From the IMG/VR virus record IMGVR_UViG_3300044513_000078, positions 1 through 32,483 of that record: a stretch of 32,483 nucleotides of DNA. The stretch is one strand, 5' to 3'. A program made the position numbers and the translations under genes. The notes under the pieces are model-generated. The model did not search any database and was not told the origin of the DNA. It saw only the letters and a list, made by a program, of their open reading frames with translations. The first letter of the stretch is position 1, and each line of letters opens with the position of its first letter. The stretch is from a virus (lineage: Duplodnaviria > Caudoviricetes). Positions 3,918 through 26,544 of this stretch are shown in pieces.

Positions 3918-5488
3918 TATCCCTCCAATGCTTCCACTCTAGCAGTTAAATCTGAAATCTGTGTGCTTAGTTCTTGTACTGCTTTTATCAAAGGGGATAT
4001 AAGTTCTGTATATGCAATAGACTTAGTTTCATCTCCTTCGCCTCTTACTAAGTTCCAATTAGTGTCAGATGGTTGCAATGCTTCTACATCTTGTGCAATT
4101 AATCCATAAGATATAGCATTTTCTTCTATTCCTGTAACATCTGTCCATATAACATTACAATCAGTATCTTCATCACAAGAATTACACTCTGCATCTTCTT
4201 CACCTACTATTTCTTCAGTATTAGAACACACCCATCCATATTGTCTTATGTATGTAAATTTCTTTGGTTGTAAATCATTAATAAAATTTAAACCTAAATC
4301 TGTTACTTCAATATTTTCTTTAAGTCTTTCATCAGAGCTAACATTTGTATTAAACTGTGCATACAAAAGTAACCACCTATAAGTAGAATCACCTAACCCG
4401 TAGTTTGCATTAGAAGAAGCTGGTCTTAATTTTACAGAGCTAACACCACTTCTTGTAAACCTTACTGTCTGTGTATCTTGACTTATTGTATCAAAAAAAC
4501 CAGAACCTGTACCAGAAACAGATATAGCACCCTTCATTCCAGAACCACCAGAAGAAATAGATGTTACTGCTGTAGAAGAACTTACAAATGTTCCGTGACT
4601 ACCGTGAGAAGTTGAAGTTAAATACCTTTGGTCTCCTTCAGTTTCAGTTAAGTATTCCGCAGGTATAGAAGTTAAAAATCCACTGTGGCTATGCCCAGTT
4701 ACATCTCCTATAGGATGAGTATGAGTTGAGTCAGCAAAGCTTGTATGGTCACTATCTGCGTGTGAACCACCAGCATTAGCCCATTGAACACCAGTTGCAG
4801 TACTTTGTAATACTTGACCAGCGTCTCCTAGTGACCCACCTGCTTGTAGTCCTCCACCTAGAACTAATCTATTTGGAACAGTAAAGTAATCTGTAAAATC
4901 GTCCCAAGAAGCAACATTATCAGTACCGTTAGTGATTTGCATTCTATTTCGCCCAGCTACAGGAACATCAATAAAAAATCCCATTGTTGAAAATTGACCA
5001 TCTATAGCTATAGAAGGATTATCCTCATCACCATCTGGTAAAACTAATAATGATTTTGTTGTAACTAAAGAGCTAGTACCACTTACATCTCTGTTAAATA
5101 AAACTGCATCACCAATTTTTATCCTGTCATTTGCTGCTGTTGTAGGTGTACCAGAACCTGTATCTTTTCCTAGAGTAATAATAGGATTATTTATAGTAAC
5201 ACTGTTAAAGAAAGCATCTCCATCTGCACTTATTTTCCAACCTGAAGTTCCAGATACAAAATTTCCTGCGATAGTTCCATCATTGTTTAAATATATATAT
5301 TGACCACTAGAGTTTTCTGAACGCAAATAATTACTTGCTAATTCCCAACCACCAATTTGACCTGATGTTGCTCTAATTACACCATCTTTTGTTACAGAAA
5401 ATACAGGTGTATAAGTTAAATCATCAAACTCAGTAGTGCCAGTAGCACCAAAATAAAAATTACCATCAGTATCTATATGTATTGCCAT
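3917..5488 (-). CDS. Tail fibre/spike with C-terminal intramolecular chaperone (peptidase S74-type), 523 aa
   Basis: SSDERLKENI autocleavage motif, LQPKKFTY, YGLIAQDVE, and YTELISPLIKAVQEL followed by a terminal coiled coil; HxH motifs; N-terminal beta-repeats like the end of the upstream gene. Confidence 0.9.
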   Translation of the reverse strand: MAIHIDTDGNFYFGATGTTEFDDLTYTPVFSVTKDGVIRATSGQIGGWELASNYLRSENSSGQYIYLNNDGTIAGNFVSGTSGWKISADGDAFFNSVTINNPIITLGKDTGSGTPTTAANDRIKIGDAVLFNRDVSGTSSLVTTKSLLVLPDGDEDNPSIAIDGQFSTMGFFIDVPVAGRNRMQITNGTDNVASWDDFTDYFTVPNRLVLGGGLQAGGSLGDAGQVLQSTATGVQWANAGGSHADSDHTSFADSTHTHPIGDVTGHSHSGFLTSIPAEYLTETEGDQRYLTSTSHGSHGTFVSSSTAVTSISSGGSGMKGAISVSGTGSGFFDTISQDTQTVRFTRSGVSSVKLRPASSNANYGLGDSTYRWLLLYAQFNTNVSSDERLKENIEVTDLGLNFINDLQPKKFTYIRQYGWVCSNTEEIVGEEDAECNSCDEDTDCNVIWTDVTGIEENAISYGLIAQDVEALQPSDTNWNLVRGEGDETKSIAYTELISPLIKAVQELSTQISDLTARVEALEG

Positions 5489-5491
5489 AAA

Positions 5492-8400
5492 TTATCCTAT
5501 ATGTACCGAGCCTGCATTTATTGTCATTGTACCAGTAATTGTCGCACCACTAGCAAATAAAACACCTGAATTAGAAACAGTGAATGGAGCATCACCATAA
5601 TTTGCGTGACCAAGCCACATGTTTCCATTGCTGTCAACATTAAATACTGCGTTACCAGAACCAATACTAATTGTACCTGCTGATAGGTCACCTCTAAATG
5701 TTCCATCATTAAACTCTACTGAACCATCTGCATTTAATTTAAAACCTGCACTTCCTGCTGTATAATTTGCTTGTATATAAGCATTTGCACCATCTATTTC
5801 CATAGAGTTTGAATTACCATCATCTGCCGACAACTTATCACTAGCAATTGTCCAACCACCAATATCACCAGATGTTGCAGTTATGTTACCTCTAAAAACT
5901 GCATCATTAAATTCTGCATAACCATTTGGATAACCAGTATCTTGTTTTCTAATTGTCCAACCAGATGTTCCTAATGAATAGTTATCTGATTCAATAAGGT
6001 TTCCTATTTTTGCATTAGTAATGGCAGCATTAGCTATTTTTGCAGTATCTACTGATAAGTTTCTTATTTTTGCAGTAGTAATAGCAGCATCATCTATATT
6101 TTCAGTTAAAACTAAATTAGCACTTTTCTGTTGTTCAGGAGAAGCATCAGACTCATTACCAGCTAAATCTACAGCAGTAAATCTAAAAAACATAGTATCT
6201 GCACTATCTAAACTATCTCCTTTAAGAGTAGTGACAGCAGGTATTCCTAATCTAAGCATTGATGCATCTGCTGGTACTTTACCTATTAAACTACTTTCTC
6301 CAACAGTAAAACCTGAAGTTGTAGAACCATATACATTTAAATGTGACAAGTCTGATGGAAGAGTGAAATCGACCACTGTAGCAAGTGGATTACCTTGTGC
6401 ATCAGTAGCAGCACCTAATCTATGTATAACTTGAATAGCACCTTGTAAGGAAGCAAGTGTTGTTGCTTCATCAGGTGTAGGGGGTGTTCCTGTATCAACT
6501 GCTGTAGTTATTGTTTCATATACGAAACCACTAGAAGCACCAGTAGTTATAGCTTGTACACCTACTTTGTAATCTGTAGCTTGTAATAAATCTTGAATAG
6601 TAAATGTTGTATTTCCCCAATTTATAAAATAATGTTCTGTACCACCTAGTACAGGGTTTACTGGTTGAACTGTAATTTCGTATTGTAAACCATTGGTTAT
6701 TAATGTTTCATCACTGTTTCTAGGAACTAACCACTCTAAAAATATAATTGACCTTTGTGTTCCTAGTGCATCAGTTTCAAATCCAGTTGTTAATCTTATA
6801 CCCTCATTAGCTGGGTCATCAGGGTCTATAACTTTATTTGGTTTATACATTTTATCACCAGTTGCAGCACCTGATATTTGTGAAGAAAATCTTAAGTCAT
6901 CTCCTATTTGTTTACCTATCTCTCCAACTTCTAATTGAGTATTTCCTGCTTCAAACTCTATATAATCATTTAAGTCATAATATCTAACTACAAAAGGACT
7001 AGCTGATACTACTTTTCTTAGATAAACACCAAATGTTTCTTCTATAGGATAAGTTATACCAACAATTCGTATTTTTTCTGGATTGATAAACTGACCTTGC
7101 CATATTTGTTCATAAGGCTCTGACCTACCATCTGCAACTGCTTTTGTAGGTGTATCAACAAAACCTATCTCAGGGTCATAAACGAATATATTATCTCCTA
7201 CTTCAAAATCACCTTTTACATCGTAATATTCCAAAGACAAAGACAAAGATTTTTTAATTCTTGTAAATTCTTCTAAAAATGCTTCAGCTCTTTTAGGTGC
7301 CATGTTGCTTGAAACTTCAGTTTCTGCTACATAAGCAACTCTCTCTAAAGGATTTCCAAATAAATCATAATAAGGAACTTCTGTTAAAAATCTTTCATAT
7401 AAATCAATATTTTCTCCATCAGAACCTGCATTTTCTATATACTCTACACCTGCTACCCAATCTTCTGCCTCAAATTGTGTAGTCAATGCATCTGGGTTTA
7501 AACCAGTTATACCAGGGTCTTCACCTTGACTATCTCTTACAATAATTGCAGTTGGCGTATCGGTTCCATGACCCACGAACACATTTTCTGGTAATCCAGC
7601 ATCTAATGTACCATTTGTGTTAATTCTGTATTCTGTTTCTAATTGTGACATAACTTTTTTAATTGCAGAAAAAGCACTTTCTAAGTTATGGTTACCTTTA
7701 TATAAATTAGCAGTTTGGTCAATTGTAGGTGCACTTGTTGGAACATCAAAATCAGCATCATATAATGATTCTCCTTTTGTAAACTTTAATCCATCTATGT
7801 AACCTTTAAAATAATCTGCTTGCTGACCTCTACCAATTGATAAATGCAATGATGCTTTGGAGTCTGTACCACCTGTCTTAGCATCTCTAGTTACTCTCTT
7901 TACAGTTGTTTCAGAGTTCCATTCACTTACCTTTACACCATTTTCCCAAGTTTTCCATGTGTTACCTTTTCTTGTAATTGCTCTATGAACCCACTGACCA
8001 TTAGCTCTATCACCTAATTTAATACCTTCAGCAATATCATATATTGTGTCATCAACTCTAGTAATAGGGTCAATATTGCTCTCTGCATAATTACTTGTAA
8101 TCCATACTTGTAGTTCACCCTCACCATTATCTAAACCTAATATGAATGGGGGAACTGCACCATCACCCTGAGCCACTATTGCAGCACCATTTGTTGATGA
8201 AGGTCTAATTGCTAAGTATGTTTGATTACCCTCATACCAACGATTGTTTAATTGCCATAAAGCAGAATAATACTTTTGATAAAATGGGTCTTCTTCCCAA
8301 TAATTAGCATTTCCAGGGTCTGTGTCATAAATAGATGCATCACCAGTGTAATACAAAGGTATTTCATCTTCTCTTCCTTGTTCTAATAATTCTAAAATGG

Positions 8401-9556
8401 TATTAGCTACAATACCTGTTGGTAATGTTGAATATACAATATCTACCCAAGCAGGTGCATTTGGTCTTGCCATAAAGAAGTCTTCAGGTATTGGCTCACC
8501 TTGATACCACTGAGAATTTTTTCTTGGGTCTAATGGTGCATTAACCCACTGAGCTAATTGTGCATCATAGTACCATTGCAAGTCATTATTAGGTTCTAAA
8601 AGTTCTTCTATATCCCCCTGCCTTGCTTTTACCATTGCATCATCCCATAAAAGTTTTGACTTCCAAGTTACTTTTACACCATTAACAACGATTGGGTTAT
8701 AAACTACTTTTAAGTTATTTGGGTCAACACCTGATGGATAATCAGCAGGAGATGGTTTAGAACCAAGAAACATAAGAGCATATCCTGCATTATTGTAAGC
8801 ATCTAAATCTGCTTCGCTTGTAACAGCAGTACCATCTACTTGCTTGTATTGGTAAACAAAATAACTAGCATCAAATGCTTCTTTTCCTATTTGATAGCAA
8901 ACTAAAACCATCATATCAAAATGTTGTTGAGCTAAATCAGTATCATATGGGAAACAATCAGCATAAAGTAAATTGCCATCATCATCTTCATCATCAAATA
9001 TTGCTATTACTTTGTTTACATAACCTACAACATCTTCAGCAAGTAATGTGCTAGCAAGAGACTCAGAAAATCTCATATTGCTATTAGAACTATCATTACC
9101 TGTATAAGCAATTCTTATACCACTTGTTTGAACATCTCCATTTCCATCTACCCAATTACCACCACTATCTGATGTAGCATATGTATCACCTCTTTGAATT
9201 GGGAAACTGTAATCTACATTGTTAATCCGAAAAGTATCATTAGAATAATGACCATAAAAATCCCAAAACAATGATTCAGAACCTCTATGTATAGAACCCT
9301 CATTGTTATATGTATGACCATAACCTACTACTAAGTTACCTCTTACACCATCATGAAAGTCAGGGTCAAATGGTACACGACCACCAACACTCTCTGCAAA
9401 AATTGTTGAACCACTAGGTACAGGGTCATTGTCCACATAAACACCTAATACTGGATAACCAGTATCGTAAACGAAAGGAACAAAACCTATCCTATCTTTA
9501 ATTGCCTGTAAACCATCGGCACTTAGGTTTGCGTTACGAATATCAAACTGAGGCAT
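5492..9556 (-). CDS. Tail tip/central fibre protein (1354 aa): degenerate lysozyme-like N-terminus, half of a LamG domain, hub C-part, FN3 domains, lambda-J-like C-terminus
   Basis: Start placed at ATG 9556 (TAATG overlap) rather than GTG 9580. Motifs: VGYGHT and QQHFDMMVLVCYQIG (GH24-like); GQWVHRAITRKG and FKGYIDGLKFTKG (LamG); LEWLVP...LLQATDYKVGVQA and TAVDLAGNES (FN3); ITTAKI/ITNAKIGNLIESDNY..GTSGW (J-like C-terminus). Confidence 0.85.
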   Translation of the reverse strand: MPQFDIRNANLSADGLQAIKDRIGFVPFVYDTGYPVLGVYVDNDPVPSGSTIFAESVGGRVPFDPDFHDGVRGNLVVGYGHTYNNEGSIHRGSESLFWDFYGHYSNDTFRINNVDYSFPIQRGDTYATSDSGGNWVDGNGDVQTSGIRIAYTGNDSSNSNMRFSESLASTLLAEDVVGYVNKVIAIFDDEDDDGNLLYADCFPYDTDLAQQHFDMMVLVCYQIGKEAFDASYFVYQYKQVDGTAVTSEADLDAYNNAGYALMFLGSKPSPADYPSGVDPNNLKVVYNPIVVNGVKVTWKSKLLWDDAMVKARQGDIEELLEPNNDLQWYYDAQLAQWVNAPLDPRKNSQWYQGEPIPEDFFMARPNAPAWVDIVYSTLPTGIVANTILELLEQGREDEIPLYYTGDASIYDTDPGNANYWEEDPFYQKYYSALWQLNNRWYEGNQTYLAIRPSSTNGAAIVAQGDGAVPPFILGLDNGEGELQVWITSNYAESNIDPITRVDDTIYDIAEGIKLGDRANGQWVHRAITRKGNTWKTWENGVKVSEWNSETTVKRVTRDAKTGGTDSKASLHLSIGRGQQADYFKGYIDGLKFTKGESLYDADFDVPTSAPTIDQTANLYKGNHNLESAFSAIKKVMSQLETEYRINTNGTLDAGLPENVFVGHGTDTPTAIIVRDSQGEDPGITGLNPDALTTQFEAEDWVAGVEYIENAGSDGENIDLYERFLTEVPYYDLFGNPLERVAYVAETEVSSNMAPKRAEAFLEEFTRIKKSLSLSLEYYDVKGDFEVGDNIFVYDPEIGFVDTPTKAVADGRSEPYEQIWQGQFINPEKIRIVGITYPIEETFGVYLRKVVSASPFVVRYYDLNDYIEFEAGNTQLEVGEIGKQIGDDLRFSSQISGAATGDKMYKPNKVIDPDDPANEGIRLTTGFETDALGTQRSIIFLEWLVPRNSDETLITNGLQYEITVQPVNPVLGGTEHYFINWGNTTFTIQDLLQATDYKVGVQAITTGASSGFVYETITTAVDTGTPPTPDEATTLASLQGAIQVIHRLGAATDAQGNPLATVVDFTLPSDLSHLNVYGSTTSGFTVGESSLIGKVPADASMLRLGIPAVTTLKGDSLDSADTMFFRFTAVDLAGNESDASPEQQKSANLVLTENIDDAAITTAKIRNLSVDTAKIANAAITNAKIGNLIESDNYSLGTSGWTIRKQDTGYPNGYAEFNDAVFRGNITATSGDIGGWTIASDKLSADDGNSNSMEIDGANAYIQANYTAGSAGFKLNADGSVEFNDGTFRGDLSAGTISIGSGNAVFNVDSNGNMWLGHANYGDAPFTVSNSGVLFASGATITGTMTINAGSVHIG

Positions 9557-10248
9557 TACTCCACCCTGTATTCCCACCACTCAATAGTAAAATCTTGTGC
9601 TTCTAATTGAAAGTGATAAGAATAATCTACTTCCACATACGACCTTTCACCATCAAGGTATAAACTTGTATTTCCAAATTTTGCTTGGTCTGAGCTTAAT
9701 TCAGCACCACCATAAAACTTAACTGTATGGTCTCTCTTAGTTGCATCTGTAGTTTCTTTGTCACCATCATTACCATCAAAATTTAATAATAAATCTGTAC
9801 TTTCTTTGCTTGGGTTTGTTATTGTTCCAGCTCTTATTGCTCTTTTACCACCATCGTTACCATCTCTTAGTAATCCATAAGGTGTGCCATCTTCAAAATT
9901 ATCTAGTACATAATTTAAACTTTTATTGACATACTTTCTCATATTAGAGATACCACCTTGGTCAGAAACAGGCAATCCTCTTGATTCTGTATCTCCTAAA
10001 TAAGTACCTAGACCTGCACCCTCTATTTCTATTGCATCATCACCTAATGCTAATCCTGTAATGACACCAACATAATCAGCACTATTAAGCATTGCTGTAT
10101 CGTTTAATTCATTTTCTTCAACTCTTTGTGGAACTATAACAATATTATCCCAAGCATCAATAGTATTTATTATTGAGTTTGGGGTTTTGTTATAATCTAG
10201 CTTTAAATTAAAACTTCCTTGAGCCATTAATTTTTCTGTAACTGACAT
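9556..10248 (-). CDS. Tail tip hub N-terminal part plus the first half of a LamG domain (230 aa)
   Basis: Follows the distal tail gene; ends in LLLNFDG...AELSSDQAKFGNTSLYLDG...QDFTIEWWEY, the usual opening of phage LamG/ConA-like domains. Confidence 0.8.
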   Translation of the reverse strand: MSVTEKLMAQGSFNLKLDYNKTPNSIINTIDAWDNIVIVPQRVEENELNDTAMLNSADYVGVITGLALGDDAIEIEGAGLGTYLGDTESRGLPVSDQGGISNMRKYVNKSLNYVLDNFEDGTPYGLLRDGNDGGKRAIRAGTITNPSKESTDLLLNFDGNDGDKETTDATKRDHTVKFYGGAELSSDQAKFGNTSLYLDGERSYVEVDYSYHFQLEAQDFTIEWWEYRVE

Positions 10249-11594
10249 TATGCTTTTATCAACTTCTGGTATTCGTATACATTATCAAAATATTGGTCTC
10301 TAATATCCACTGCGTCATCTGCATCATTGATAGAACTATCTTCTTGTGCTAGTTCATATCCTAAAAATGCTTTCATAACAGCACCACTTTTGTACATCAT
10401 TTCTCTTTCAACATCATATTCTAATGAACTTGAATTACTCTCAGGACTTCCTAAAATCCATTTATTACCATCTTCTGGTGAGCTTGAGCCATCAATTATA
10501 TAGCCTGTTCCAGTAGAAGCGTTTGTTCCTGATGCTGTCTCTAATGATAAATTAAATCTACTTGCAGTAAATTGGTTTGCAACTATAGAAACATGATGTG
10601 CACCTCTTCTTAATGTAAAGTCCAGAACTAATCTCCCATCTTTTGAATCAGCATTTAAATAGCTAGTAAGCCTTACAGTAGCACACTCAGGTTGATTTTT
10701 TAAGATTTGCATTGTTCTCCAACCTTGCCACTCATTGGCTAATTGGTCACTACCAGTTGGCTGACCTCTTGAAAAAGCCCAAGTTTTTCCTGATTGATAA
10801 TCACTTACATCAAATATATAAGTATCAAATAATGCTTGAGTTGTTGAATTACTAAATTCAATTCTAATTAGACCATTTTCTAAAACTAATTCAGTAGGTT
10901 TGTTTTTAGAGAATAAACCATTTCTTACTTCTAATTTTGTTTCATCAAATGTCTTTACCCCATTAGTTTTAGTAAAACCAGTGTCATATGTACCAGTTGA
11001 TATTCTTACAGCACCTTTATAATAATCTTCAGGTTCAACATGATAAGTTGCATTACTATCTCTTAAATTACTATCTGTTTTAAGTCTAAGAGTATTGGTT
11101 GCACCAGTAACAGTAGAAGTTAAATCTTTACATAATCTTGTATTATCTTCAGGTTGACCTGCGTGATAATAATTATAATGATTAACTGGTGGTGAGTGAT
11201 ATTGCATAGTTGTTGTTGTTACATTATGGTCATTATCTAGCATTGCACCAGTAAATCTTGATTCAAATTGTATCTCTCCACTTCTCCCTAAATATTCAAA
11301 TTGAATGTTATAAGAAAATCCACCTAAAGTATATCTAGTAGTATTTACACTGCTTGTTCTAACTTTTACATATCCATCATAAGTGTCATCACCATCATAT
11401 CTTAAAGGAACGACCAAACCATATGATGCCATTGAAACTAATTCATCTCTTATGTATTTAATATGGTCTAGTGTGACTGCACTACCACCAACACTACCAT
11501 TTACAATTAAATCTCTACCACCATCTGTAGCTTGAAAGTTTACAGTTTGTGGTGATGTAATACTTAATCTTCCAATATGTAATTGATTAGCCAT
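10248..11594 (-). CDS. Minor tail protein, distal tail (Dit) position, 448 aa
   Basis: Immediately downstream of the tape measure with TAATG coupling; beta-rich; LENGLIRI and GRLVLDFTLRRG motifs recall actinobacterial prophage minor tail proteins. Confidence 0.7.
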   Translation of the reverse strand: MANQLHIGRLSITSPQTVNFQATDGGRDLIVNGSVGGSAVTLDHIKYIRDELVSMASYGLVVPLRYDGDDTYDGYVKVRTSSVNTTRYTLGGFSYNIQFEYLGRSGEIQFESRFTGAMLDNDHNVTTTTMQYHSPPVNHYNYYHAGQPEDNTRLCKDLTSTVTGATNTLRLKTDSNLRDSNATYHVEPEDYYKGAVRISTGTYDTGFTKTNGVKTFDETKLEVRNGLFSKNKPTELVLENGLIRIEFSNSTTQALFDTYIFDVSDYQSGKTWAFSRGQPTGSDQLANEWQGWRTMQILKNQPECATVRLTSYLNADSKDGRLVLDFTLRRGAHHVSIVANQFTASRFNLSLETASGTNASTGTGYIIDGSSSPEDGNKWILGSPESNSSSLEYDVEREMMYKSGAVMKAFLGYELAQEDSSINDADDAVDIRDQYFDNVYEYQKLIKA

Positions 11595-14500
11595 TAATTT
11601 CTCCTAAGACCTGTTCCTGATGAACCCTCTTTGCCAAGTTGTACTAAAGCTCTTTGTATCTGTTGTGCTGCTTTTCTTGCTTGTATTGGGTCTGATGGTA
11701 CACCAGTTACTTGTACATTTAAGTTGTCAATATTTATACTAGCACCTCTTCCACCTTCAGGTTGTACCCTTAAACCACCACCTGGAACTGATGTTACCAT
11801 TTCTGGTCCATACTCACCAACTAATGCTCTTTGGAAAGGCTTCATATAACCACCATATTTAAACCCTCTAAGTACATTGTAATTTGTTAGACCTAAGTCA
11901 TCTAATTTACTTTGAAGTTTTTTAGCAAGGCTGTCAAAATATCCATATGTAGCTTTAGTTTCTTTAGGTGACAATTGTTGACCTTGCTCTATTGCTTGTT
12001 GTTGTTGCATATACTTTGCATACATTGATGGGTCAAGACCTAAGTACTGTAACATGTCTGTTAGATTTCTAAGATTCCTCTGGTTTTGACCAGTTTTTGG
12101 ATTTACCATAGGTATAAAGTTCAATAGATTTTGTAACTCATTAGCAAACAATTCTATAGATGGTCCTAATTGTGTATTTACAATGCTAGGTATATATCCT
12201 GCTGTTCTAGTTCCAGACTCTACATTTCTTGAATAATCACCTGCTTCTGCTTCAGCTAATTTTTTAGAAGTGTCATAAATCTGAACACCTGCATCTAATA
12301 ATGATGGTGCAAGGTGAGATAGTTCTTTTGCTTGCAAGGCTTCGTATGAAGTAGCTAATTGACCACTATCAAACATACTTATTGGTATACCTAAAAATCC
12401 TTCAACTGCTCTAATAAATTCAAATTGTGCACCCTCATCATTTGCATAATCTCCAGACATAACTCTTTTGGCTGCAACAGATGCTAAGTTCATTTCTTCA
12501 TCATCTTTAAATTGACCAGCACTACCTCTACCTGTAATACCTAAATTACCTTGACCCATATTTTTCATAATTTCTGTATATGTTGAAGAATTAGCACCAA
12601 ATCTATCTTGTAAGAATGTCTTAAAACTTGGGTATTCCTTTTGAGCTAGTTGTGTTCCTAAAGAATCTGTACCAGGCGTATCAATCATTCTGTGTTGCTC
12701 TGCTAAAGCTAATGCATCTAAATAACCTCTTACAGACTCTGCAGCATTTTCCATTTGGACTTTAGTAGTTGTAGCAAAAGTTTTTGTCTTATTGATTATT
12801 CCTTGTAGTGTTGTACCCATACTTCCATAACCTGCAACTAGCTTAGCAAATATTTCTTCACCTGCACCATCAGCAAAGTCTTTAAATCTTTCTCTAGCTT
12901 GTTCATATTTTAATTCAGTGGTATATACATTTTCGACAGCAGCATCATAATTGTCATACGCTGTTTCTAACTCATAGTATTGATTTGCTGCTTCATCTAA
13001 ATATTGAGAGTGTCTTTCTCTGATTGATAGTAATTCCTCTTCAGTTTTTATTGCGTCATCTTCGGTTCTTTGAAGTTGTTTTTCTGCTTCTGATAATTCG
13101 AGAATAGCAATTTTTTGTTCATCTTGAGATAAATTAGTACCTTTCATTTCATCTAGTGCTTCTTGTGCTGCTTCAACTTCAAGTGCAGTAACTATTCCTG
13201 CTTCAGCTGCTAATGTAAGTTTTTCTAACTCTTCTTCAGCATTAGCTATTGCAAGTCTTTCTTGAGCACTAAATTCACCTTTAGCTCTTTTTAATTTATC
13301 TTCCAGAGCAACTTTTTGTTTTAGTATGTCTAATTGTTCAGAACCAGTAATATTTCCTTTTCTACCCTCTTGCTCTAATCTAGCAAGGTCAATCATATGC
13401 TCTAGGTATCTATCATTAAAACTAGCTTGTTGTCTTCTAGTAGACATAAGTGCTTGCTCTGCTTTTTGAACAGAATAGTGAGCTTGTAATAAGTCTCTTT
13501 CAGCTTGTGTAAATGAAAACAGTACATCTAAGGCTTCTTCTACTTCTGACAGAGCTTGTTCATATGTTGCATATAGATACTTAACTTGGTCATCAACTAA
13601 TTTTACTGCTTGATTTACAGCTCCACCAACACTTTGTGCAATTATGCTTGCTGCTTTATTTTTATCAGCAAAAGGAGAAATAATACCCTCAAGTAATGGA
13701 ATACCAATAAGGTCTCTAGTTTTTCTTGATGGAGAACCTGTATCAGCACCATCTGGACCTGCAGCATCAAATATTGCTTGGTTAATCAAATTTACCATTG
13801 CACTAGGCAATGAAATGGCACCTCTGTTATGCAATCCTATTAGTAAACCATCAGCAAGTGAACTACCTATTTCTATAGCTTGGTTTTGAAATTTATCTAC
13901 CATATCTTGTTCTATACCGATTTCTGCTGCAAATTCAGGTATAGTTTGCATTAATGCACCCTCGGCCACAAAAGATGCAGTTCTATCATTTAAGAAATCT
14001 TGTGTAAGTTGCATTGCTGCTACGCCTTGCTTTGATAGTTGTTCAGCTAGTAATGGTGCGTTTTGAGCTAACCTCTTTATCATATTTTCAAAGTTTTTTT
14101 GCATTGCTTGTTTAACAATAAGTTCTTCCACAATCTTCTTCATACTCTTCTTGATTTGAGTAGGAACTGCTGAAAATACATCCATTACTGTTTGTGCAGA
14201 GTTAACTAAATTATTCTTCATTGTTTCGCTAAACTTACTTGCTGCGAAATCTGCTAGATTTAATTCATCTCTAAGCTGTTTAGCTTTCTCGACCTCTGCT
14301 TCTCTAGCCACTTCTCTAGCAAAAGCTAATTGTTGTTCTGCTTTAGCTCTGTTTACTTTAGGGTCTAGTATTTTGTCTATAATTCCTTGGTTTTGAAATT
14401 GTCTTAACTCAGACATTAGAGCTTGGTCTTGCATTTCTTTAATTACACTTTGACCACTATCCATCTTTGTAAGGCTTTGGTCAACAACATTTTTACCTAA

Positions 14501-17500
14501 AACAAGTAACGATGTTATTTCTTTTTTAAATTGTTCTGGGTCAGATGATGCAAAACCAAGTGCAGTCATCATCATTTGTTGTGCTGCTGCTTGTCTATCT
14601 CTTGTGTTAAATCTTTTTTCTAATACTTCTGGGTCTAACCCATCAACAAATTTTTGGAAAAATTCTTGGTCAATAGTGGCTAATGTTTCTTGTCTAAAGC
14701 CATTTAATTTAGACCTGCTTAATGTTATAAATCCTGATGGGTCAACTTCAATATTAAAATTATCAAATCTTGAATCCATATTATTTTTAAATCTCTCATT
14801 GAAATCAGCACCTGTAATAGTTTCTGTAAATCTGTCGGCAAGTTTCATTTGAGAATTTGGGTCTGAGCCTAAAATAACACCCTCACCAAATATTTCGCCT
14901 AAGTCACCTTGTTCTTGGAAAAATTGTATTAATTCTTTTTGTCTTATTTTAAAGTAGTTTTCATATGGTATTTTAGGGTCATATACTAAAGTACTGTCAT
15001 CTTCAAATGTCTCAAGCAAAGCACCAAATATATCTTGAGATGCTTGGCTAAAGCTAGATATATCAGTAAAACCTTCTAATAAATCTCTAGGACTAGCATC
15101 AACTGTTGACTCAGATATTTCTTTACCAATTGCATTAGTAATACTATCTATTAAAAGTTCAGCATCTGCACCAATAAATTCAGCTATTGCTGGCAGTCTT
15201 TTTTCTAAGTCTCCTATCTTGTCATCAACAGTTGTATCAAATAGTAATGTAGAACCAATTTCTGCCATTTGCTCTTCAAATACATTGTTAGCTTCTCTTA
15301 AAGAGTTTTTAGTATCTTCTAGTCTTGTTTCTATTGCTTTGACAACATTGTCAAACTCAGGACCTTTTTGCTCATATTCTTCGAGTAATTTTTCTAATTC
15401 TGATTGTTGTGCTTTTAACCCTTCTCTAGTTTGAGCATCTTCAAATAAACCATCAAGGGCATCTCTAACAGCTTCTATTGCAGTTTCACTCTTAGATAAA
15501 TTTTCAAATACTTTAAACCCAGTACTCATAACTGCCATAAAAGCAGCCATTGCACCCATATTTGCTATTAAACCTTTAACAGCCATACCAACACCATTAA
15601 TTACTTTGGTAAGCCTTAAAAATGAGTTCCTAACTCTTCCAGTTATTTTGTCATTTTTAGACATTTGAATTTCAAGGTTTCTTAATTCTTTTTGCCTCAA
15701 CAAACCAAAAGATTGTATTATTTTAGCAATTTGTTTTTGGAAAGGTATAAATGCTTTATTTTGAGTTCTTACTCTATTTCCAAGACCAACTAATCCAGTA
15801 TCTACTTCTCTTATTTCAGTTTTTAATTGAGCATAAGATTCTCTAGTAGCTTTAGATACTTTTGGCATTCTAAATCTTTGCTTCTTTTTCGTTAATACAT
15901 CAGTGTCAAGTACATCACCAGGTCTTAATTGCTCGCCAGTTGGACTTAATCCACCTATTGCAAATTCCTCATTCAACTGTTTAATGAATGACTCAGCTTG
16001 AGCTTCGCTAATGTCTCCTTTTTTGATACCTTTTTCTAGTGTATCATTTATATTTTCAAGTAATTCCTGTTTGTTTTTTAACTGGTCAACGTCTGTTTTA
16101 CCTAGGTCAAGTAAATCATTTTCTTTTTCAAATAACTCGTTTACTAAATTAACTTCATTTTCTAAACCACGAGCAGTTTCAAGAGCTTTACTTTCTTCCA
16201 GACTAAGTTGGTCACGAATACTTTGATTAATTTTATCTTTTAATTTTTCTTGCTCGACATCAATATCTATAGTTTGCGATTTGACATCTTTAATCATTTT
16301 TTCTCTATGTTCAATACCTTCAGTAGCACCATCAATGTCTTTAGAAAGTTTTTTTCTTTCAGCTTCTAATTCAAGAATGTTTTTGTTATTTACATTAGCC
16401 GCATCTGCTGCTTTGTTAAATTTACCTTCTTGTGCTGTAATTAAATTATTTTGGTCTACTAATTCTTCGGTAACATCTTTAAGTCTTGATTGTAAGTCAA
16501 GTTTTTCTGCTTGTTTTTTAACTAATAATTTTTCAGCTTCTATTTTATTATGCTTGCCAGCAGTGTTTAAATTTTTCTTAAGTTGGACTTCTTCTTTTGC
16601 AAGAGAACGAAGTCTACTCTTAACTATACTTTGATTATCTTCAAGAAGCCTTTTCCTTTTTTGCATTTCATCAAGAGTTGTAAATTCTTCAACAAGTTTT
16701 CTTCCACTTTCTGACTTTGGGTCAACTTTTTTTTCTAAATCTGCTTGTGAGAGTATTAAATTTTCTTCTCTAAGTTTTTTAATTTCTTCATCAATTACCC
16801 CAATTCTTTCCTGCCTAGATTTTTTTTCAGCATCTATAGCACTTATTTCATTTTCTATATTTTCAACAGTAGTATTAATTACCTTATTCATGGTTTCAGC
16901 TCTCTCAATCATTACATCTTGAGAAGTGCTAGTAAAATCATTTACTTTCTTTTTTAATTCTACAAAACCATTACCATAATCTTCTAAAACTCTGATATTA
17001 GCTTCCATATCAGAAATATTTTGGTTAAGTTCAACTCTTTGGTCTTTAAGATTAATAAGCTCTTCTTCTTGTTTAGGTGTAATTCTTGCATCTGATTTTT
17101 CTTTTTCTAGTCCAGCAATCTTTGCTTGTACTTCATTTAATGAAGCTTCATAAGATTTTAAACTACCTTGTGCTTCATTTAGTAACTTAATATTATTTGA
17201 AAGCATAGCATCAACATTGCTTAAGAACCTACTAAACACTTGTCTTTTACCACTTGTTAAATCGCCATAAGCAACTTCCTTTTTCATTATTGTTTGCATT
17301 GCTTCTAGTTCTTGTTTTGACCTTCTAGCCATATCTGGGTCTGCACCTCTTTCTCTATAAATATCCATCATAGTTTTTTCTTCTTTAAGAAGTGCAATTC
17401 TGTCTTCAAGAACTTTAAGACCATCATTTTCTGCTTTTATTCTTTCTTTTAAGTCAATTGTTTGTTCTGCAAAACCTATTTGGTCTCCAGCTTCAACAAA

Positions 17501-19492
17501 TTGTTTTTCTCTACTTTGTAAATCATCTAACTGAGTATTTAACATTGATATTCTGTCTGATGCGACTGTTGCTTCATCAGATAAAATTTCTAAATGTCTT
17601 TCAGCAGCGGCTCGTGTACCTCTTTGACCTTCTTGTAAAGATGCAATATCATCTTCAATTTCTAATTTTTTTAATAATGTATCGTTTAATCTATCTTCAA
17701 CATTTACTTGTGACCTTATTTCATCAGTAAGTTGTTCTCTTACTTGTAGTAATCTCTGCTCTTTCTCAGTTAAATTTTCAATATTATCTGCATCTATTGT
17801 TGTTCCAAATACATCAAGACCCTCTAGTGCAGCTTGGTCTAATATTGCTTCAATTTGTGATGTGTCAAAACCTTGGCTTTGTAAAGAAGCAGCAAATAAA
17901 TCATTTGACATATTCATAGGAATTTGTGTTTGATTTAAGAAATCAGTACCTTGTTTAGCAGCATCTAAAGTGCTTTGTACATACTTATCAAATGCCTCTA
18001 ATTGATATGGGTCTGTTTTTTCAAGTTCAACTCTGTATCTAGCATATTCATCTGCAATTGTTTTTGAATATTCAGCTCTAGCTTTTTCTATTTGTGCTAA
18101 AGCTCTAGGACCAGCCATTGATTCTACACTTAAAATGTCTCCAAATATAGCACTACCACCAGTTGGTGATGTTCCTGCTATCTTGGAAAAATCTTCAATA
18201 ATATTTTTAATAGCTGCCCTACCAGTAGCAAGTCCAGCTAAAGCAAGACCAATTCTCTTTATTCCATTTGTTATATCATCACTTTCAACAGCTTTAGACA
18301 TTGTTGTAAATCCATCAATAACTCTGTTTAATACAGGCAATGTATTTTCACCAAGTTCAAGACCTATATCTTGTATATTGTTTCTTAGTATTCCTAATTG
18401 AGATGTAGTAGTTTCAAATCTTTTTTCAGCTTCTGTAAGTAAAGCAGTATTGAGAGCAAACTCTTCGTTAGCAGTTGATAAAGCTCTTTCTACTTCATCA
18501 GATGCAAAAGCTAATGCTCTAAGAGCTCTAACTGTTCTTTGTTGCTGTAGTCCTAATTCTTTTAGTATTGATACAGTATCAGCACCTTGGCTACCTAAAC
18601 TTCTAAGACCATCTAAAAATCTTAAAAATGCACGAGCTGGGTCAACTTGTGCCAATTCTCTAAAGGCAGTAGTTGTCATTCCTGCTAATTTAGCAAACAA
18701 GGATAACTCTCTACCACCTGCGGCTACAGCAGAACCTAATTTATCTAAAGTTCTCTGAACAGCAGTTGCACCAGATTGAGACTGAACACCAACTGCTTTT
18801 AATGCAGTAGATAAAGCTAGAGAATCTACAGCAGCATTACTAAATTCACTTTCTAATGATTCCATTGCTGTTGCAATTCCAAGTGATGTGTTTATAATTT
18901 CACTTTCAGTAGCAGCAAATTCGTTACCTAATCTAACAAGGACAGATGCTAAATTGTCTATATCATCTTCTGCTGTATTTGTAATATTTGCTAGTCTTGA
19001 AATTGCAAAAGCAGCATCTTCTGCACCCATAGTTGTTGCTACAGTTAGCTTTGATATAGTATCAATAAAAGAACCAATATTGCTAGCTTGTATACCTAAT
19101 TGTCCACCAATTTCACCAATTTTATTTAATTCATTAGTTGCAATAGGTGTAGTTTTTGCAATGTTTCTGATTTCGTTTGAAAGGTTTTTAAATCTTTTTT
19201 CAGCAGATACTGTTGCAGTTTCTGTGAAGTTAAGTGTTTTCTTTATACCAGCAAAGGTGTCTTCAAATTGAACTGCTGAAGAAATAGCAAATCTATAAGC
19301 AGAAAAAGCAGCTGCACCAGTAGCAGCAAATGCAGGTATAATTGCACCCATTTGTTTACCAACAGATGCAGACCTTCTTTGAAGCTGTACTAATTGACTT
19401 TCAATTTGTTTAGTTGCTTTACCAAGAGATTGACCCTTAGCTACGAAATCTAAACCAATTACAACTTTAGCTGCGTCTTTATCAACTGCCAT
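11594..19492 (-). CDS. Tail tape measure protein (TP901-family core), 2632 aa
   Basis: AVQFEDTFAGIKKT, GEIGGQLGI and RLGNEFAATESEI core; long coiled coils; C-terminal FKYGG...LVGEYGPE motif; GGAG RBS; follows the chaperone genes. Confidence 0.97.
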   Translation of the reverse strand: MAVDKDAAKVVIGLDFVAKGQSLGKATKQIESQLVQLQRRSASVGKQMGAIIPAFAATGAAAFSAYRFAISSAVQFEDTFAGIKKTLNFTETATVSAEKRFKNLSNEIRNIAKTTPIATNELNKIGEIGGQLGIQASNIGSFIDTISKLTVATTMGAEDAAFAISRLANITNTAEDDIDNLASVLVRLGNEFAATESEIINTSLGIATAMESLESEFSNAAVDSLALSTALKAVGVQSQSGATAVQRTLDKLGSAVAAGGRELSLFAKLAGMTTTAFRELAQVDPARAFLRFLDGLRSLGSQGADTVSILKELGLQQQRTVRALRALAFASDEVERALSTANEEFALNTALLTEAEKRFETTTSQLGILRNNIQDIGLELGENTLPVLNRVIDGFTTMSKAVESDDITNGIKRIGLALAGLATGRAAIKNIIEDFSKIAGTSPTGGSAIFGDILSVESMAGPRALAQIEKARAEYSKTIADEYARYRVELEKTDPYQLEAFDKYVQSTLDAAKQGTDFLNQTQIPMNMSNDLFAASLQSQGFDTSQIEAILDQAALEGLDVFGTTIDADNIENLTEKEQRLLQVREQLTDEIRSQVNVEDRLNDTLLKKLEIEDDIASLQEGQRGTRAAAERHLEILSDEATVASDRISMLNTQLDDLQSREKQFVEAGDQIGFAEQTIDLKERIKAENDGLKVLEDRIALLKEEKTMMDIYRERGADPDMARRSKQELEAMQTIMKKEVAYGDLTSGKRQVFSRFLSNVDAMLSNNIKLLNEAQGSLKSYEASLNEVQAKIAGLEKEKSDARITPKQEEELINLKDQRVELNQNISDMEANIRVLEDYGNGFVELKKKVNDFTSTSQDVMIERAETMNKVINTTVENIENEISAIDAEKKSRQERIGVIDEEIKKLREENLILSQADLEKKVDPKSESGRKLVEEFTTLDEMQKRKRLLEDNQSIVKSRLRSLAKEEVQLKKNLNTAGKHNKIEAEKLLVKKQAEKLDLQSRLKDVTEELVDQNNLITAQEGKFNKAADAANVNNKNILELEAERKKLSKDIDGATEGIEHREKMIKDVKSQTIDIDVEQEKLKDKINQSIRDQLSLEESKALETARGLENEVNLVNELFEKENDLLDLGKTDVDQLKNKQELLENINDTLEKGIKKGDISEAQAESFIKQLNEEFAIGGLSPTGEQLRPGDVLDTDVLTKKKQRFRMPKVSKATRESYAQLKTEIREVDTGLVGLGNRVRTQNKAFIPFQKQIAKIIQSFGLLRQKELRNLEIQMSKNDKITGRVRNSFLRLTKVINGVGMAVKGLIANMGAMAAFMAVMSTGFKVFENLSKSETAIEAVRDALDGLFEDAQTREGLKAQQSELEKLLEEYEQKGPEFDNVVKAIETRLEDTKNSLREANNVFEEQMAEIGSTLLFDTTVDDKIGDLEKRLPAIAEFIGADAELLIDSITNAIGKEISESTVDASPRDLLEGFTDISSFSQASQDIFGALLETFEDDSTLVYDPKIPYENYFKIRQKELIQFFQEQGDLGEIFGEGVILGSDPNSQMKLADRFTETITGADFNERFKNNMDSRFDNFNIEVDPSGFITLSRSKLNGFRQETLATIDQEFFQKFVDGLDPEVLEKRFNTRDRQAAAQQMMMTALGFASSDPEQFKKEITSLLVLGKNVVDQSLTKMDSGQSVIKEMQDQALMSELRQFQNQGIIDKILDPKVNRAKAEQQLAFAREVAREAEVEKAKQLRDELNLADFAASKFSETMKNNLVNSAQTVMDVFSAVPTQIKKSMKKIVEELIVKQAMQKNFENMIKRLAQNAPLLAEQLSKQGVAAMQLTQDFLNDRTASFVAEGALMQTIPEFAAEIGIEQDMVDKFQNQAIEIGSSLADGLLIGLHNRGAISLPSAMVNLINQAIFDAAGPDGADTGSPSRKTRDLIGIPLLEGIISPFADKNKAASIIAQSVGGAVNQAVKLVDDQVKYLYATYEQALSEVEEALDVLFSFTQAERDLLQAHYSVQKAEQALMSTRRQQASFNDRYLEHMIDLARLEQEGRKGNITGSEQLDILKQKVALEDKLKRAKGEFSAQERLAIANAEEELEKLTLAAEAGIVTALEVEAAQEALDEMKGTNLSQDEQKIAILELSEAEKQLQRTEDDAIKTEEELLSIRERHSQYLDEAANQYYELETAYDNYDAAVENVYTTELKYEQARERFKDFADGAGEEIFAKLVAGYGSMGTTLQGIINKTKTFATTTKVQMENAAESVRGYLDALALAEQHRMIDTPGTDSLGTQLAQKEYPSFKTFLQDRFGANSSTYTEIMKNMGQGNLGITGRGSAGQFKDDEEMNLASVAAKRVMSGDYANDEGAQFEFIRAVEGFLGIPISMFDSGQLATSYEALQAKELSHLAPSLLDAGVQIYDTSKKLAEAEAGDYSRNVESGTRTAGYIPSIVNTQLGPSIELFANELQNLLNFIPMVNPKTGQNQRNLRNLTDMLQYLGLDPSMYAKYMQQQQAIEQGQQLSPKETKATYGYFDSLAKKLQSKLDDLGLTNYNVLRGFKYGGYMKPFQRALVGEYGPEMVTSVPGGGLRVQPEGGRGASINIDNLNVQVTGVPSDPIQARKAAQQIQRALVQLGKEGSSGTGLRRN

Positions 19493-21744: not shown

Positions 21745-21775
21745 ATCTGTATTCTATACTTGCAAAATAAAATTA
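21745..21775 (-). promoter_or_regulatory. Putative leaderless promoter: TAATTTTATTTT-N7-TAGAAT-N6-ATG
   Basis: No SD upstream of ATG 21744; TANNNT hexamer 6 nt upstream; motif shared with 25864-25894 and 27485-27516. Confidence 0.55.
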
Positions 21776-24700
21776 GAAGTATCTTTTACCAAGGAAGTCT
21801 CTAATTTTTTTTCTTTGTTCAGTCAAGTCACCAGAATATTTTCTTTCTAATGAATTAACTATTTCTAATACTTGACCTCTTGTTGTAGGACTTATAACTT
21901 TTAGATTAAGTATCTCTTCCCCAGTTGCTTGCCTAGATAAAAGTGAAAGAATTATATTTGTAAATTTACTATCTCCAGTAGCAAAAAACATAACGCCTAA
22001 AGCTGTAATTGACTGAGGGTCTTCAGCTTCAAATGATAAATTTTCTAATTCTCTTCTAAATTCAGAGCCTTTTGAAAAATCTAACCTTTTTTTTCTTTTA
22101 GTATCTATCAAAGCATTTTCTGTATCCATGATGTCGCCTTGTATTTTAACTTTGTTCATACCTGCATTTATATATAATCTTCTTACTTTATTAAAAGAAG
22201 TAATTAGAGATGCATCAACAGTTTGTATAAATTGTTCAAATGTGCTGTCAGGTGTCACACCTCTATCTGCATATGAGCCAGCAATTGTTTTACCACCTGC
22301 AACATCACTAGGAATATCTTCAAGATAGTTGACACCACTGTCAGGGTCTTCAAAATAACTAAAGACCACTTCTCTATAATCGTAATCACCATCTAGTGGC
22401 ACTTGTGCTTCAGCTTGTATTAATCGAGCTTCTAATTGACCAGTAGAAGTAAAAGAAAAATCTATACCTTGAGCCCTTAATTCACTTTCCATTTCACTAT
22501 AAAGTCTTCGTTCAAAATCTTTAAACTCTTCTAGTTGTCTAATTTTGGAAACTGGTAATCCAGTTTTTTCTTTTAATTCATTAATTTTTTGAGCAATAGC
22601 CAGTTTGTTGCTAGCGTTATATGCATCAGCTTGTGCTTGATGAGATGTTCTTGGAAGTTTTTGAGTAGTACCAGTACCTGAAGTAAATACCTCAACAGCT
22701 TTTTGAGTACCACTTTTTGAAGTTTTTTGTATAGCTTTATATCTTTCTTCAATAGACGTAATTGTTTCTTCTGCTGCAATTTCTAAAAATCTACTATCAT
22801 CAATTTTTGCAACCTCTGCTTTAAATTCTATCTGTCTCTGTTGTTCTAATAATTCAGTTCTTTTTAATACTTCATTAGAAATCCAGTTGTCTCTTTCTTC
22901 TAAAGACAAATTAGTAAGGTTTGCACCTTCTGATTTAACAATATCAGGTATTTTCTTAGCTGCTTTTTCGTACTGTTCCATAGAAGAATCATGAATTAAT
23001 GTATAAGAAGTAATTCTTAACTCATCAGCTTTGTAGATAACTGCATCTATAATTGTTGCATTATCTTGTATTCCAGTTCCATGAAATATATTTGCAGGAA
23101 ATCTTGTCATAAATATTTTTTCCATATTTCCATCTTGAATGTCTGTGATAGTTATGGGTCCTAATTGAAAGTTTTTATTAGTTCTAATATAATTTTGTAA
23201 ATATTTTAAAACTCTACCACCTGCATCTGCACCATATTTACCAATTGCATCTTCAACTTTGTCTTGATAGTTATTAAATTGATTATCAGGTTCTGGGTCA
23301 TCAATCATTTTCATAGTAAAGACTTTTTCCTTACCCTCTTCGTCAACCCCAACCATTTGTATTCTGTCACCTGGTCTTTGCAAGTTTTTAATTGCTGCTG
23401 CTTTTTTTCTATCTACCATTGAATCTGCATATTTTCTTTCTCCCATAGGGTCATCAAATAATGATTTCAATGCTTTTTTTTGAACATCAGCATTGTTAAT
23501 TCCTCTAACATTTGTAGCTTCTATTTCAGAAGTCATTAAATCCTTTAACCTTCTGTCCATTAGCATTGTGAAACCTTTTTGCTTTTCAGTAGGTTTTATA
23601 CCACCTTTAATATTTATTCCATCAATTAGTTTTGTAGGTGTTCTAAAGTTTGCATTAATTCCTACAGCTTTTAGAGCTTTGTTACCAGCTTTATTCATAA
23701 ACAAAGTTCTATTGTAAATAAAGTTATCAGCTCTATTGCCTATTTTGAATTGTTTATCTTTTGACCTAGATTTACGCCAATCCATACTGTTAGTAGCTGG
23801 TCCACCAAACTCTATTTGCTGGGCATCAGAAATTGCATCAGCAAATTTAGAACGAGGTGTTTTACCACCAAAGCTAATTGAAAAATTCATAAATGCATCT
23901 GACTTATATTCATCATCAATATGTATTGCTTTTTGTATTTGAAATCTACTAGGTATATAGTTAGGGTCATTTGGATTATTGCTAGATTTTATAACTTTAT
24001 AATTTACTCTTTTATCATCTATTCTTCCATTTTGTTTATTTCCAACAATTGTAGACATTTCGTTATAGTCACTTAAATCTGCTGTTCCTAAAATTGATGA
24101 AAGAATTTCTTTTGCTGCTTTTTGATGACTAAAACCACCACCCTCTGCACCAACCATATTCTTAGAAACTAATCTAACAAATCTCATAGCATTATCAACA
24201 TATGGTCCTGTTTCAGTTCCTCTTGCAATAGATTTAGCCCATGATTTAGCAACAATTCTTCTACCATTATATCTAGGAACTTTAATGCTGTCTCCCCATG
24301 TATTTCTTTTTCTACTTATTTCACCAACTTCTCTACCTAAGTTCCATAAAATATTGTATCTTTTACCAATGCTCTCATTTTCATCTACAGGTCCAAACTT
24401 TGAACTTAATTGACCATAACCTAAAATACCATCTACAAATTCATCAATTTCATCATCACTATGTTGTGATAAAAAATCTCTTAGGTCAGATTTGTCTTTA
24501 TCAGTACCAAAACCAAAGTTGTCATATTTTCGAGATGGTATTGAAATATCTTCTCCTCTTTCATTTTGAACAATTCTTGTTCCTGTAATTTCAAAATCAC
24601 CTTTAGCTCTTCTGTCGTCATACATGGTTGTTAATTTATTACCTTTATCCAAAGTCTGTTTTTCTAAATCGTTCAACACATCATCAATAGGTCTCATTCT

Positions 24701-25905: not shown

Positions 25906-26544
25906 TTAAATGCCTAGATTTTCGTTAATTCTTCTAGTCTTTCTTCTTTCTTTCGATTTACAAGTTTTACAAAACAATGACAGACCATCTCTAAACTTTG
26001 AATTGCTATCAAAAGAACTCGGTGAAAGACTTTGTTTACATAACATACAAGTTTTCTTATCTAGCTTGACAGAGTTTTCTTTAATTTTTGAATGGCAGTC
26101 TTTACAATACCTGTTGTATCCATCTTTATACTTAGCTGATTTTTCATATTCATTAATAGATTTATTAATAGAGCATTTGTAACATACTTTTTCTGTAGGA
26201 TTATACGAAGAATTTAAAAAATTATTTCTGGCCTGTTCTGCCTGTTTTGCTAGTTCTATATCTTTTATACACCAAGTTCTAAATTTATCATATCCAACTG
26301 GTAAACCTTCATAAGTTTTTCTAGTTGTTATAGTTCCTATGCCAGATTGTATTCTTTGAATTACTTGTTCTGCTATTTTGTAATCTATTTCATTGCCAAT
26401 AGATAATCCAGCTTCTACTTTAAGTTGTCTTACCCTTTCTACTGAAACACCCCATTCTTTAGACCATTCCTTAAGTAATTTATTAGGATTTCCTATAAAA
26501 AGCTCTTTTGCATCCTCAACACTCGGTGCTTTTTTATTAGGCAT
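25906..26544 (-). CDS. Putative DNA-binding protein (212 aa): N-terminal HTH, TerS-like helical segment, two Cys4 zinc fingers
   Basis: WGVSVERVRQL HTH; two KxCxxC-x17-DG-x4-CKxC units; basic C-terminus; no HNH motif. Confidence 0.7.
   Translation of the reverse strand: MPNKKAPSVEDAKELFIGNPNKLLKEWSKEWGVSVERVRQLKVEAGLSIGNEIDYKIAEQVIQRIQSGIGTITTRKTYEGLPVGYDKFRTWCIKDIELAKQAEQARNNFLNSSYNPTEKVCYKCSINKSINEYEKSAKYKDGYNRYCKDCHSKIKENSVKLDKKTCMLCKQSLSPSSFDSNSKFRDGLSLFCKTCKSKERRKTRRINENLGI

Follow-up and report, generated by a model that had tools for sequence, protein, structure and literature searches.

Tail-tip hubs of phages are known in more than one arrangement. In lambda and RcGTA the hub consists of two chains with a gene between their genes, whereas T5 and many others use one chain, and the change between these states has been inferred only from distant structures. 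According to PMC10721106, HDI and the beginning of the HDII-insertion domain belong to lambda gpL and the remainder to gpJ, genes K and I lying between the two genes; RcGTA gp13 and gp15 are described there as divided in the same manner. In PMC13243795 the decoration that separates the first hub domain from the remainder varies and is called a focus of hypervariability near the cell wall, and PMC7291167 describes Tal proteins with lysin and carbohydrate-binding extensions. A different route by which a phage gene can be broken is recounted in PMC2677866, in which fractured genes are rejoined by split inteins and accompanied by a free-standing endonuclease. Here we analyse the virus record IMGVR_UViG_3300044513_000078, a stretch of 32,483 nucleotides (nt) hereafter called the window, in which a LamG/ConA-like domain of a likely tail-tip hub is divided between two adjacent genes, with a lysozyme-like module lying between its halves.

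A LamG domain divided between two genes

An initial annotation of this DNA had reported a 230-amino-acid (aa) gene followed by a 1354-aa gene, with one LamG domain cut across them in different frames, and had proposed a nesting of hub, LamG and lysozyme combined with gene fission. The two open reading frames (ORFs) lie as it described them, at 10248-9556 (gene 1) and 9556-5492 (gene 2, counted from the ATG in TAATG). The C-terminal end of gene 1 reads DFTIEWWEYRVE and then stops, and the ATG of gene 2 overlaps that stop. The cut is borne out by PHROG profiles that match the two sides in order. Positions 410-492 of phrog_24074 match gene 1 aa 146-228 (E 5e-17) and positions 544-629 match window 8206-7697 (E 4e-8), and phrog_3545 is split likewise, with profile positions 733-827 in gene 1 and 882-975 on the gene 2 side. 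The halves are separated by 1361 nt, which places them in different frames. The Pfam profile PF13385 matches gene 2 aa 451-592 with its model positions 26-140 (segment 37-140 at E 3.5e-6) and gave no match in a search of gene 1; when both parts are counted together, the profile of the whole LamG domain is present. In the single-ORF relative P0003, PF13385 5-140 and phrog_24074 408-624 run unbroken.

Contigs from two other sequencing runs (X10 and X13) read through both junctions without a single difference or gap, and therefore the split is not an assembly error. A contig from run X11 crosses the junction at 9556 only, and locus L120 is 100% identical to the window across gene 1. With no indel at 9556 in independent contigs and with many split relatives, the proposal that the split evolved and is not a sequencing error holds. 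The divided LamG domain is real, conserved and not an artefact. The parts of the locus are as follows, all on the minus strand.

9556..10248 (-): gene 1, 230 aa, hub N-terminal part plus LamG N-half (ORF, profile matches)
9811..10248 (-): hub N-terminal part, gene 1 aa 1-146, likely equivalent of HDI (~50% identity to LamG-free relatives)
9565..9810 (-): LamG N-half, gene 1 aa 147-228, ending DFTIEWWEYR, then two residues and the stop (phrog_24074 410-492)
9554..9567 (-): junction, Shine-Dalgarno-like AGGGTGGAG followed by the TAATG stop/start overlap (sequence)
5492..9556 (-): gene 2, 1354 aa, comprising lysozyme, linker, LamG C-half, rest of hub, fibronectin type III (FN3) domain and tail-tip fibre domain
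8591..9556 (-): predicted GH24 (phage lysozyme) fold with long loop insertions, gene 2 aa 1-322 (VIA, Foldseek)
8204..8590 (-): linker of ~130 aa, gene 2 aa 323-451 (mostly low model confidence)
7703..8203 (-): LamG C-half, gene 2 aa 452-618 (PF13385 match, ConA-like structural alignment)
6857..7702 (-): C-terminal hub part, gene 2 aa 619-900 (collinear with P0003, 36% over 792 columns)
6539..6754 (-): FN3 domain, gene 2 aa 935-1006 (PF00041, E 2e-5)
5864..6049 (-): Phage_Tail_Tip domain, gene 2 aa 1170-1231 (PF09327, E 1e-10)
10248..11594 (-): context, 448-aa gene in the Dit position (synteny: between tape measure protein and hub in relatives)
11594..19492 (-): context, tape measure protein (phrog_13339, E 2e-67)

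Genes 1 and 2 together are likely to be the tail-tip hub gene, as judged from synteny, the FN3 and Phage_Tail_Tip domains and Atlas features. The pair follows the tape measure gene and a gene assigned to Dit by position, and carries the FN3 and tail-tip fibre domains found in hub and Tal proteins. A LamG-free relative gives Atlas features of 0.96 to the Prophage_tail / Sipho_Gp37 clusters (PF06605/PF14594), with 160-171 shared features, which we treat as a lead. Gene 1 aa 1-146, which share ~50% identity with aa 1-147 of single-chain relatives that lack LamG, would correspond to HDI. The cut lies in a module inserted after gene 1 aa 146, whose match to HDI and the HDII-insertion domain is proposed without superposition. 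The one pointer to the actinobacterial link raised initially is that the C-terminal third of the intact relative is ~34% identical to Streptomyces phage minor tail proteins.

The DNA at the junction is less constant than the cut itself. The gap from gene 1 to gene 2 is -1, +1, +4, +6, +8 or +11 nt, and only 17 of the 100 split loci have TAATG. The TAATG coupling noted initially is therefore present in the window, but the argument that it speaks for an evolved split is weak, because the geometry varies. The window junction forms a Shine-Dalgarno (SD) duplex of -7.9 kcal/mol with what we take to be the anti-SD motif, and SD-like pairing of -4 kcal/mol or better occurs at 89% of 35 distinct junctions versus 27% of 970 random coding windows. 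These pairing energies show that gene 2 has a ribosome-binding signal of its own. Separately, many junctions read GG-TTAAC/TTAGC/TTGAC-N-CCGTGA, a weak possible hairpin next to the stop.

Relatives of the hub and the inserted lysozyme

Relatives were taken from viral and metagenome contigs, giving 160 loci (the window plus L041-L199) that are redundant between collections. The DFxxEWWEYR strand occurs in 120 of them: in 100 a stop follows within 2-5 residues, and in 20 the frame continues. Of these 20, L118 is an unrelated LamG protein, which leaves 19 single-chain hubs with an intact LamG, ~998 aa or longer. Uninterrupted versions of the domain, for which the initial annotation had suggested comparing homologues, thus exist. 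A third architecture is a single-chain hub that lacks LamG, of which 25 loci entered the tree set. These hubs read ...KGTITEP(S/T)xxYTGKHYTES, so the two motifs that flank the LamG domain in the window (IRAGTITNP and YKGNH), described initially as normally adjacent, are neighbours in these relatives. Profiles, relatives and the lysozyme fold described below all agree with the proposed nesting and fission.

The split loci, which belong to a group of aquatic phages, contain 61 distinct gene-1 sequences, down to ~43% identity. The cut always falls directly after WWEYR, gene 1 keeps its LamG half in 100 of 100 loci, and the second-gene start M[PA][QLVI]F[DN] is equally universal. An independent protein search returned 88 homologues of near length, 75 of which end 2-10 residues past WWEYR, the other 13 being without the motif. 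A search for longer homologues missed the intact-LamG hubs that the locus searches had found, and its silence on fused forms carries little weight. A search of GTDB genomes returned only three unrelated LamG proteins, and none of the annotated phage records covers 80% of an intact hub.

For phylogenetic comparison, loci L001-L040 (largely the same contigs) and 56 of the 160 loci (truncated, lacking hub-N or failing motifs) were left out, and removal of identical rows then reduced 104 to 73. In a quick tree of hub-C, the split forms occupy one side of a branch (40 of 73 rows; Shimodaira-Hasegawa-like approximate likelihood ratio test, SH-aLRT, 99), and the hub-N tree likewise places them on one side (SH-aLRT 97). 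Because both trees gather them on one branch, a single origin of the split hubs is consistent with the data. When 11 other LamGs are set alongside, each half clusters with the LamG of the intact hubs (SH-aLRT 89 and 91, unstarred). The mean identity of the C-half alone does not discriminate, being 0.34 to intact hubs and 0.36-0.37 to two unrelated LamGs.

Other boundaries in these loci also vary. In L039:6001-11394, L066 and L199 the hub and the fibre gene downstream of it form one continuous chain, so that this boundary moves too; such fusions measure 1660-1800 aa in split forms and 1381-1522 aa in intact forms. One subgroup (L004:10712-11467, L005, L006) has an extra 251-aa gene between the fibre gene and a 398-aa gene. 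Locus L171 carries short local duplications with frame changes at 4950-7700, most likely assembly artefacts, and was left out of junction counts that need the C-half.

The module between the halves was examined by modelling gene 2 aa 1-618 with AlphaFold2 (46 sequences; mean predicted local distance difference test score, pLDDT, 71). In this model, aa 3-322 are predicted to form a complete GH24 lysozyme fold of the T4 type, aligning by VIA at Z 13.0 with 155 of 160 residues of the FAHEc1 endolysin 7m5i (root-mean-square deviation 2.5) and matched by Foldseek at E 4.6e-5. The lysozyme family PF00959 falls below the cut-off in the window (E 4e-4) and reaches E<=0.01 in 22 of 46 rows. The window protein has Ile23, Thr32 and Val76 in the putative catalytic Glu, Asp and Thr columns and so lacks the putative catalytic triad; its lysozyme is predicted to be inactive. 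All three putative residues are kept in 29 of 46 relatives, and Glu and Thr are lost together in 17. Thirteen of these 17 belong to the window's group, and four (L064, L172, L188, L189) to a second, starred group in which the remaining members retain Glu. Since the rows fall in two groups, we infer at least two losses of the putative catalytic residues.

A profile of the insert, searched against 1.84 billion protein representatives, gave 21 matches. Six long, strong ones (297+ aa, E below 1e-98) all align from residue 1, and a lysozyme fused behind hub-N was not seen among these matches, some records being visibly chimeric or truncated. The only match from outside the family is a free 162-aa endolysin, P0032 (E 1.5e-4; hhalign 94.6%), which has the insert's EGFVPxxYDD...LTIGYG.T pattern, and a free endolysin of the P0032 type is the likely donor type. 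No annotated phage record matches the insert, an Atlas search with it gave no usable match, and PDB sequence searches with alignments returned nothing useful. The linker that follows (aa 323-451) is mostly of low model confidence, with a conserved, aromatic-rich end and two short strands at aa 440-447. Two insertions are private to the window phage relative to its closest relatives, an acidic DEDDDG at 8960-8990 (-) and WYYDAQLAQW at 8550-8580 (-).

Selection on the halves and their possible re-assembly

Across 66 close pairs, the ratio of non-synonymous to synonymous substitution rates (dN/dS) is 0.127 for the LamG N-half, 0.120 for the C-half, 0.078 for hub-N, 0.142 for the linker and 0.129 for the lysozyme, the last from active and inactive rows pooled together. 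The modal column frequency is 0.66 and 0.65 for the two LamG halves versus 0.67 for hub-N. These values show both halves to be under purifying selection, and because both stay conserved, they likely re-form the domain from two proteins. In the pooled pairs the lysozyme domain, too, is still under selection, despite the predicted inactivity of the window's version. In jelly-roll sandwiches early and late strands interleave, and an 82-residue half therefore should not fold alone. The insert does not appear to replace the missing half, because hhalign finds no likeness between the insert and the LamG N-half (probability 0.2%) and ConA-like alignments to the gene 2 model begin only at aa 454 (454-618; Z 7.3-8.3, 122-138 residues). 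Foldseek matches to the C-half model are weak (best E 5e-3), and the intact domain reaches E 1.7e-8 over 188 columns. We consider it probable that the two chains re-form one LamG sandwich non-covalently at tail-tip assembly; lambda and RcGTA, in which the HDII-insertion domain is divided between two proteins, offer a precedent.

Under the mechanism we propose, an endolysin-derived gene would have landed once in a single-chain, LamG-bearing hub, within a loop that directly follows the DFTIEWWEYR strand. The inserted gene would have lost its stop and become fused to the LamG C-half, and the N-half would have gained a stop. Gene 1 would then be the counterpart of lambda gpL and gene 2 that of gpJ, with contacts in the hub and strand complementation within LamG keeping the two proteins together. 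The lysozyme would project sideways from the tip, close to the cell wall; in lineages with Glu, Asp and Thr it could cut peptidoglycan, and in the window phage it might be reduced to a binding or structural role.

Several observations weigh against this reconstruction. Just ahead of the cut (window 9565-9567), Arg is encoded by AGG at 39 of 45 distinct split junctions and at none of 13 intact ones; AGG makes up 42 of 375 Arg codons in ten window genes. In split junctions this codon lies 8-26 nt from the start of gene 2, and shared ancestry together with SD pairing may explain the bias only partly. The linker ends in Arg451, which 51 of 53 rows share and to which no role is assigned. In the hub-C tree, the neighbours of the split group are 16 LamG-free hubs (92, unstarred) and not the intact-LamG hubs, and the hub-N tree does not resolve this placement, so that a loss of LamG or a recombination is needed. 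An order in which LamG joined the hub before the lysozyme did would thus be only one way to read the trees. The model of the intact relative has a mean pLDDT of 50, with hub parts mostly below 50, and its Foldseek list holds only LamG-type matches. These are AbnA domain 4, PAPP-A and ConA-like subdomains of clostridial neurotoxin binding domains, at 10-16% identity, which indicates a shared fold only. Finally, the putative catalytic columns were assigned from what we take to be the T4 lysozyme motif, without superposition.

Both halves might be kept without forming one sandwich, each having taken a new role by packing on the hub, on the lysozyme or linker, or on an adjacent subunit of the trimer. 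In favour of this, the model of the C-half by itself reaches pLDDT 82-91 over aa 471-550, the C-half shows small clade-specific insertions, and the linker end is conserved and has its two strands. However, either side of the cut retains the motifs of the intact domain, the cut never moves, the half in gene 1 is never lost among the split loci, and the insert is unlike the half that would be missing. We regard separate packing as unlikely.

It is also conceivable that the halves complement each other but that assembly includes a cleavage near Arg451 which removes lysozyme and linker. The products would be a nicked, near-ancestral LamG and a lysozyme that is free or only loosely attached. The cleavage of T4 gp5 offers a comparison. 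Arg451 stands at the very border of the C-half, much of the linker is of low confidence, and gpK was not found in lambda virions (PMC10721106). Set against this are the Pro that replaces Arg451 in 2 of 53 rows and the absence of any identified protease or cleavage site. In addition, the matching place in non-hub LamGs holds another residue when aligned by eye, so Arg451 may be merely structural. Cleavage of this kind seems improbable to us.

Removal of the insert from the RNA by a self-splicing intron, or its skipping by the ribosome, would restore a single-chain hub and make the two-gene reading an alternative product. The initial annotation had allowed for such splicing or recoding, and the fixed cut site, the Arg on both sides of the insert and the AGG bias at split junctions fit it. 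Yet the insert codes for protein over its whole length, it measures 1270-1778 nt and occurs in each of the three phases, and gene 2 comes with an SD signal of its own. The probability of the same codon is flat at 0.50-0.64 in all 40-codon bins, and this flat synonymous conservation along gene 2 leaves no room for a ribozyme core. At the 3' border the codon is AGA, AGG, CGA, CCA or CCT with free flanks, conserved as a residue and not as DNA. An Rfam search of 7000-11000 gave no match near any gathering score, and neither a group I or II ribozyme core nor conserved splice-site nucleotides were found by Rfam, border alignment or synonymous conservation. No split intein halves were found at the gene 1 end, where only 2-5 residues follow WWEYR, or at the gene 2 start, which opens directly with the lysozyme fold, and no intein family appears among the Pfam matches. 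Splicing or recoding is accordingly disfavoured, and we think it very unlikely.

Two narrower candidates were rejected. The varying gap between the genes rules out fusion by a -1 frameshift as a general mechanism, and a target-site duplication of the Arg found no support when the second Arg was seen, by eye, to align with the residue after EYR in other LamGs. An assembly error or a dead, freshly broken gene, to which the odd layout and the local duplications in L171 might point, is refuted by the identical contigs from two other runs, the many distinct sequences that share the split and dN/dS values of 0.08-0.14, and we give it almost no credence.

Genomic setting and comparison with known hubs

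A minus-strand, siphophage-type morphogenesis operon occupies the 32.5-kb record. It runs through portal, head protease, major head protein, head-tail adaptors, major tail protein, tail assembly chaperone and tape measure, and continues with the 448-aa gene, gene 1, gene 2 and tail fibres. The 448-aa gene gave no family match in Pfam and PHROG searches, and its Dit label comes from position alone. No PHROG or Pfam profile matches a 1247-aa ORF at 21773-25516 (-), which is basic and looks largely helical. Its place, flanked by the head-tail adaptor and the tail-completion region, is usually taken by a gene of ~130 aa of the minor capsid or tail-completion type. Between two head-tail adaptor genes, a 212-aa gene at 25906-26544 (-) carries two endonuclease VII / HNH-like repeats and is possibly a mobile endonuclease. 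By label, 14 of the 20 metagenome runs with window sequence are estuarine (one of them an RNA run), two are marine (X9, X18) and the rest are from soil; more than one of these runs may be a source of the record. The coverage by RNA run X20 is 10252-10400 only, outside the split region.

If the proposed re-assembly is correct, the separately encoded halves of this lectin-like domain, both maintained by selection, would form a natural fragment-complementation pair. We put forward a broader idea more tentatively, with somewhat less than even confidence. LamG/ConA sandwiches may be natural split domains that can be cut after the central DFTIEWW strand, their halves non-covalently clasping two virion proteins, and this clade may replay the origin of the lambda L-K-J arrangement along a recurring route of virion evolution. 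Were this true, whole genes could be inserted into tail-tip genes without killing them, and the halves would offer a natural split-tag pair. With the putative catalytic residues lost repeatedly as a pair, these relatives allow active virion lysozymes to be compared with inactive ones. Genes of this kind will be labelled fragments or pseudogenes by gene callers.

The open-access literature, searched as article text exclusive of supplements, yielded no description of a LamG domain divided between two phage genes. A breakage of comparable form is that of the fractured genes in PMC2677866, in which a conserved phage gene is likewise broken in two with a foreign gene between its parts. Unlike those genes, the locus in the window has no intein halves and no endonuclease, concerns a structural protein and not an enzyme, and shows no apparent covalent rejoining.

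Single-chain hubs and Tal proteins such as T5 pb3 and LSH1 gp25 occupy the same position after the tape measure protein and Dit, and lysins and carbohydrate-binding modules are common among them (PMC13243795 and PMC7291167). Tal lysins in those accounts are C-terminal extensions of one chain, whereas in this locus a second chain begins with the lysozyme, which is nested in a domain resembling a carbohydrate-binding module. The whole fold is shared with the GH24 lysozymes 7m5i, 6h9d (SpmX muramidase domain) and 2anv (P22 lysozyme), at Z 11.9-13.0 over 146-155 residues. Relative to them, the inserted domain is twice as long through loop insertions, in addition to its loss of the putative Glu and Thr in part of the clade.

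The closest parallels are the two-chain hubs of lambda and RcGTA. In each case a short N-terminal hub chain (232 aa for gpL, 230 aa for its likely counterpart here) is followed by a long chain with the other hub domains, FN3 domains and a fibre. One domain is common to both chains, the HDII-insertion domain in lambda and RcGTA and, by our reading, the LamG/ConA sandwich here. An extra gene sits at the cut in all three systems. Lambda gpK and RcGTA gp14 are hydrolases of the NlpC/P60 type encoded by free genes, whereas the GH24 lysozyme here is fused in frame to the second chain. The four-Cys Fe-S site of the lambda-type short chain is not found in gene 1, which contains no cysteine, and the lambda-like split is therefore probably convergent. 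In contrast to lambda and RcGTA, single-chain relatives at 43-54% identity still exist for this hub, so the origin of its split is traceable. Because LamG-free, intact-LamG and split hubs with the lysozyme all occur among close relatives, the transition from one chain to two is directly testable. By analogy, then, this locus would work like a lambda-type split hub without being one by descent.

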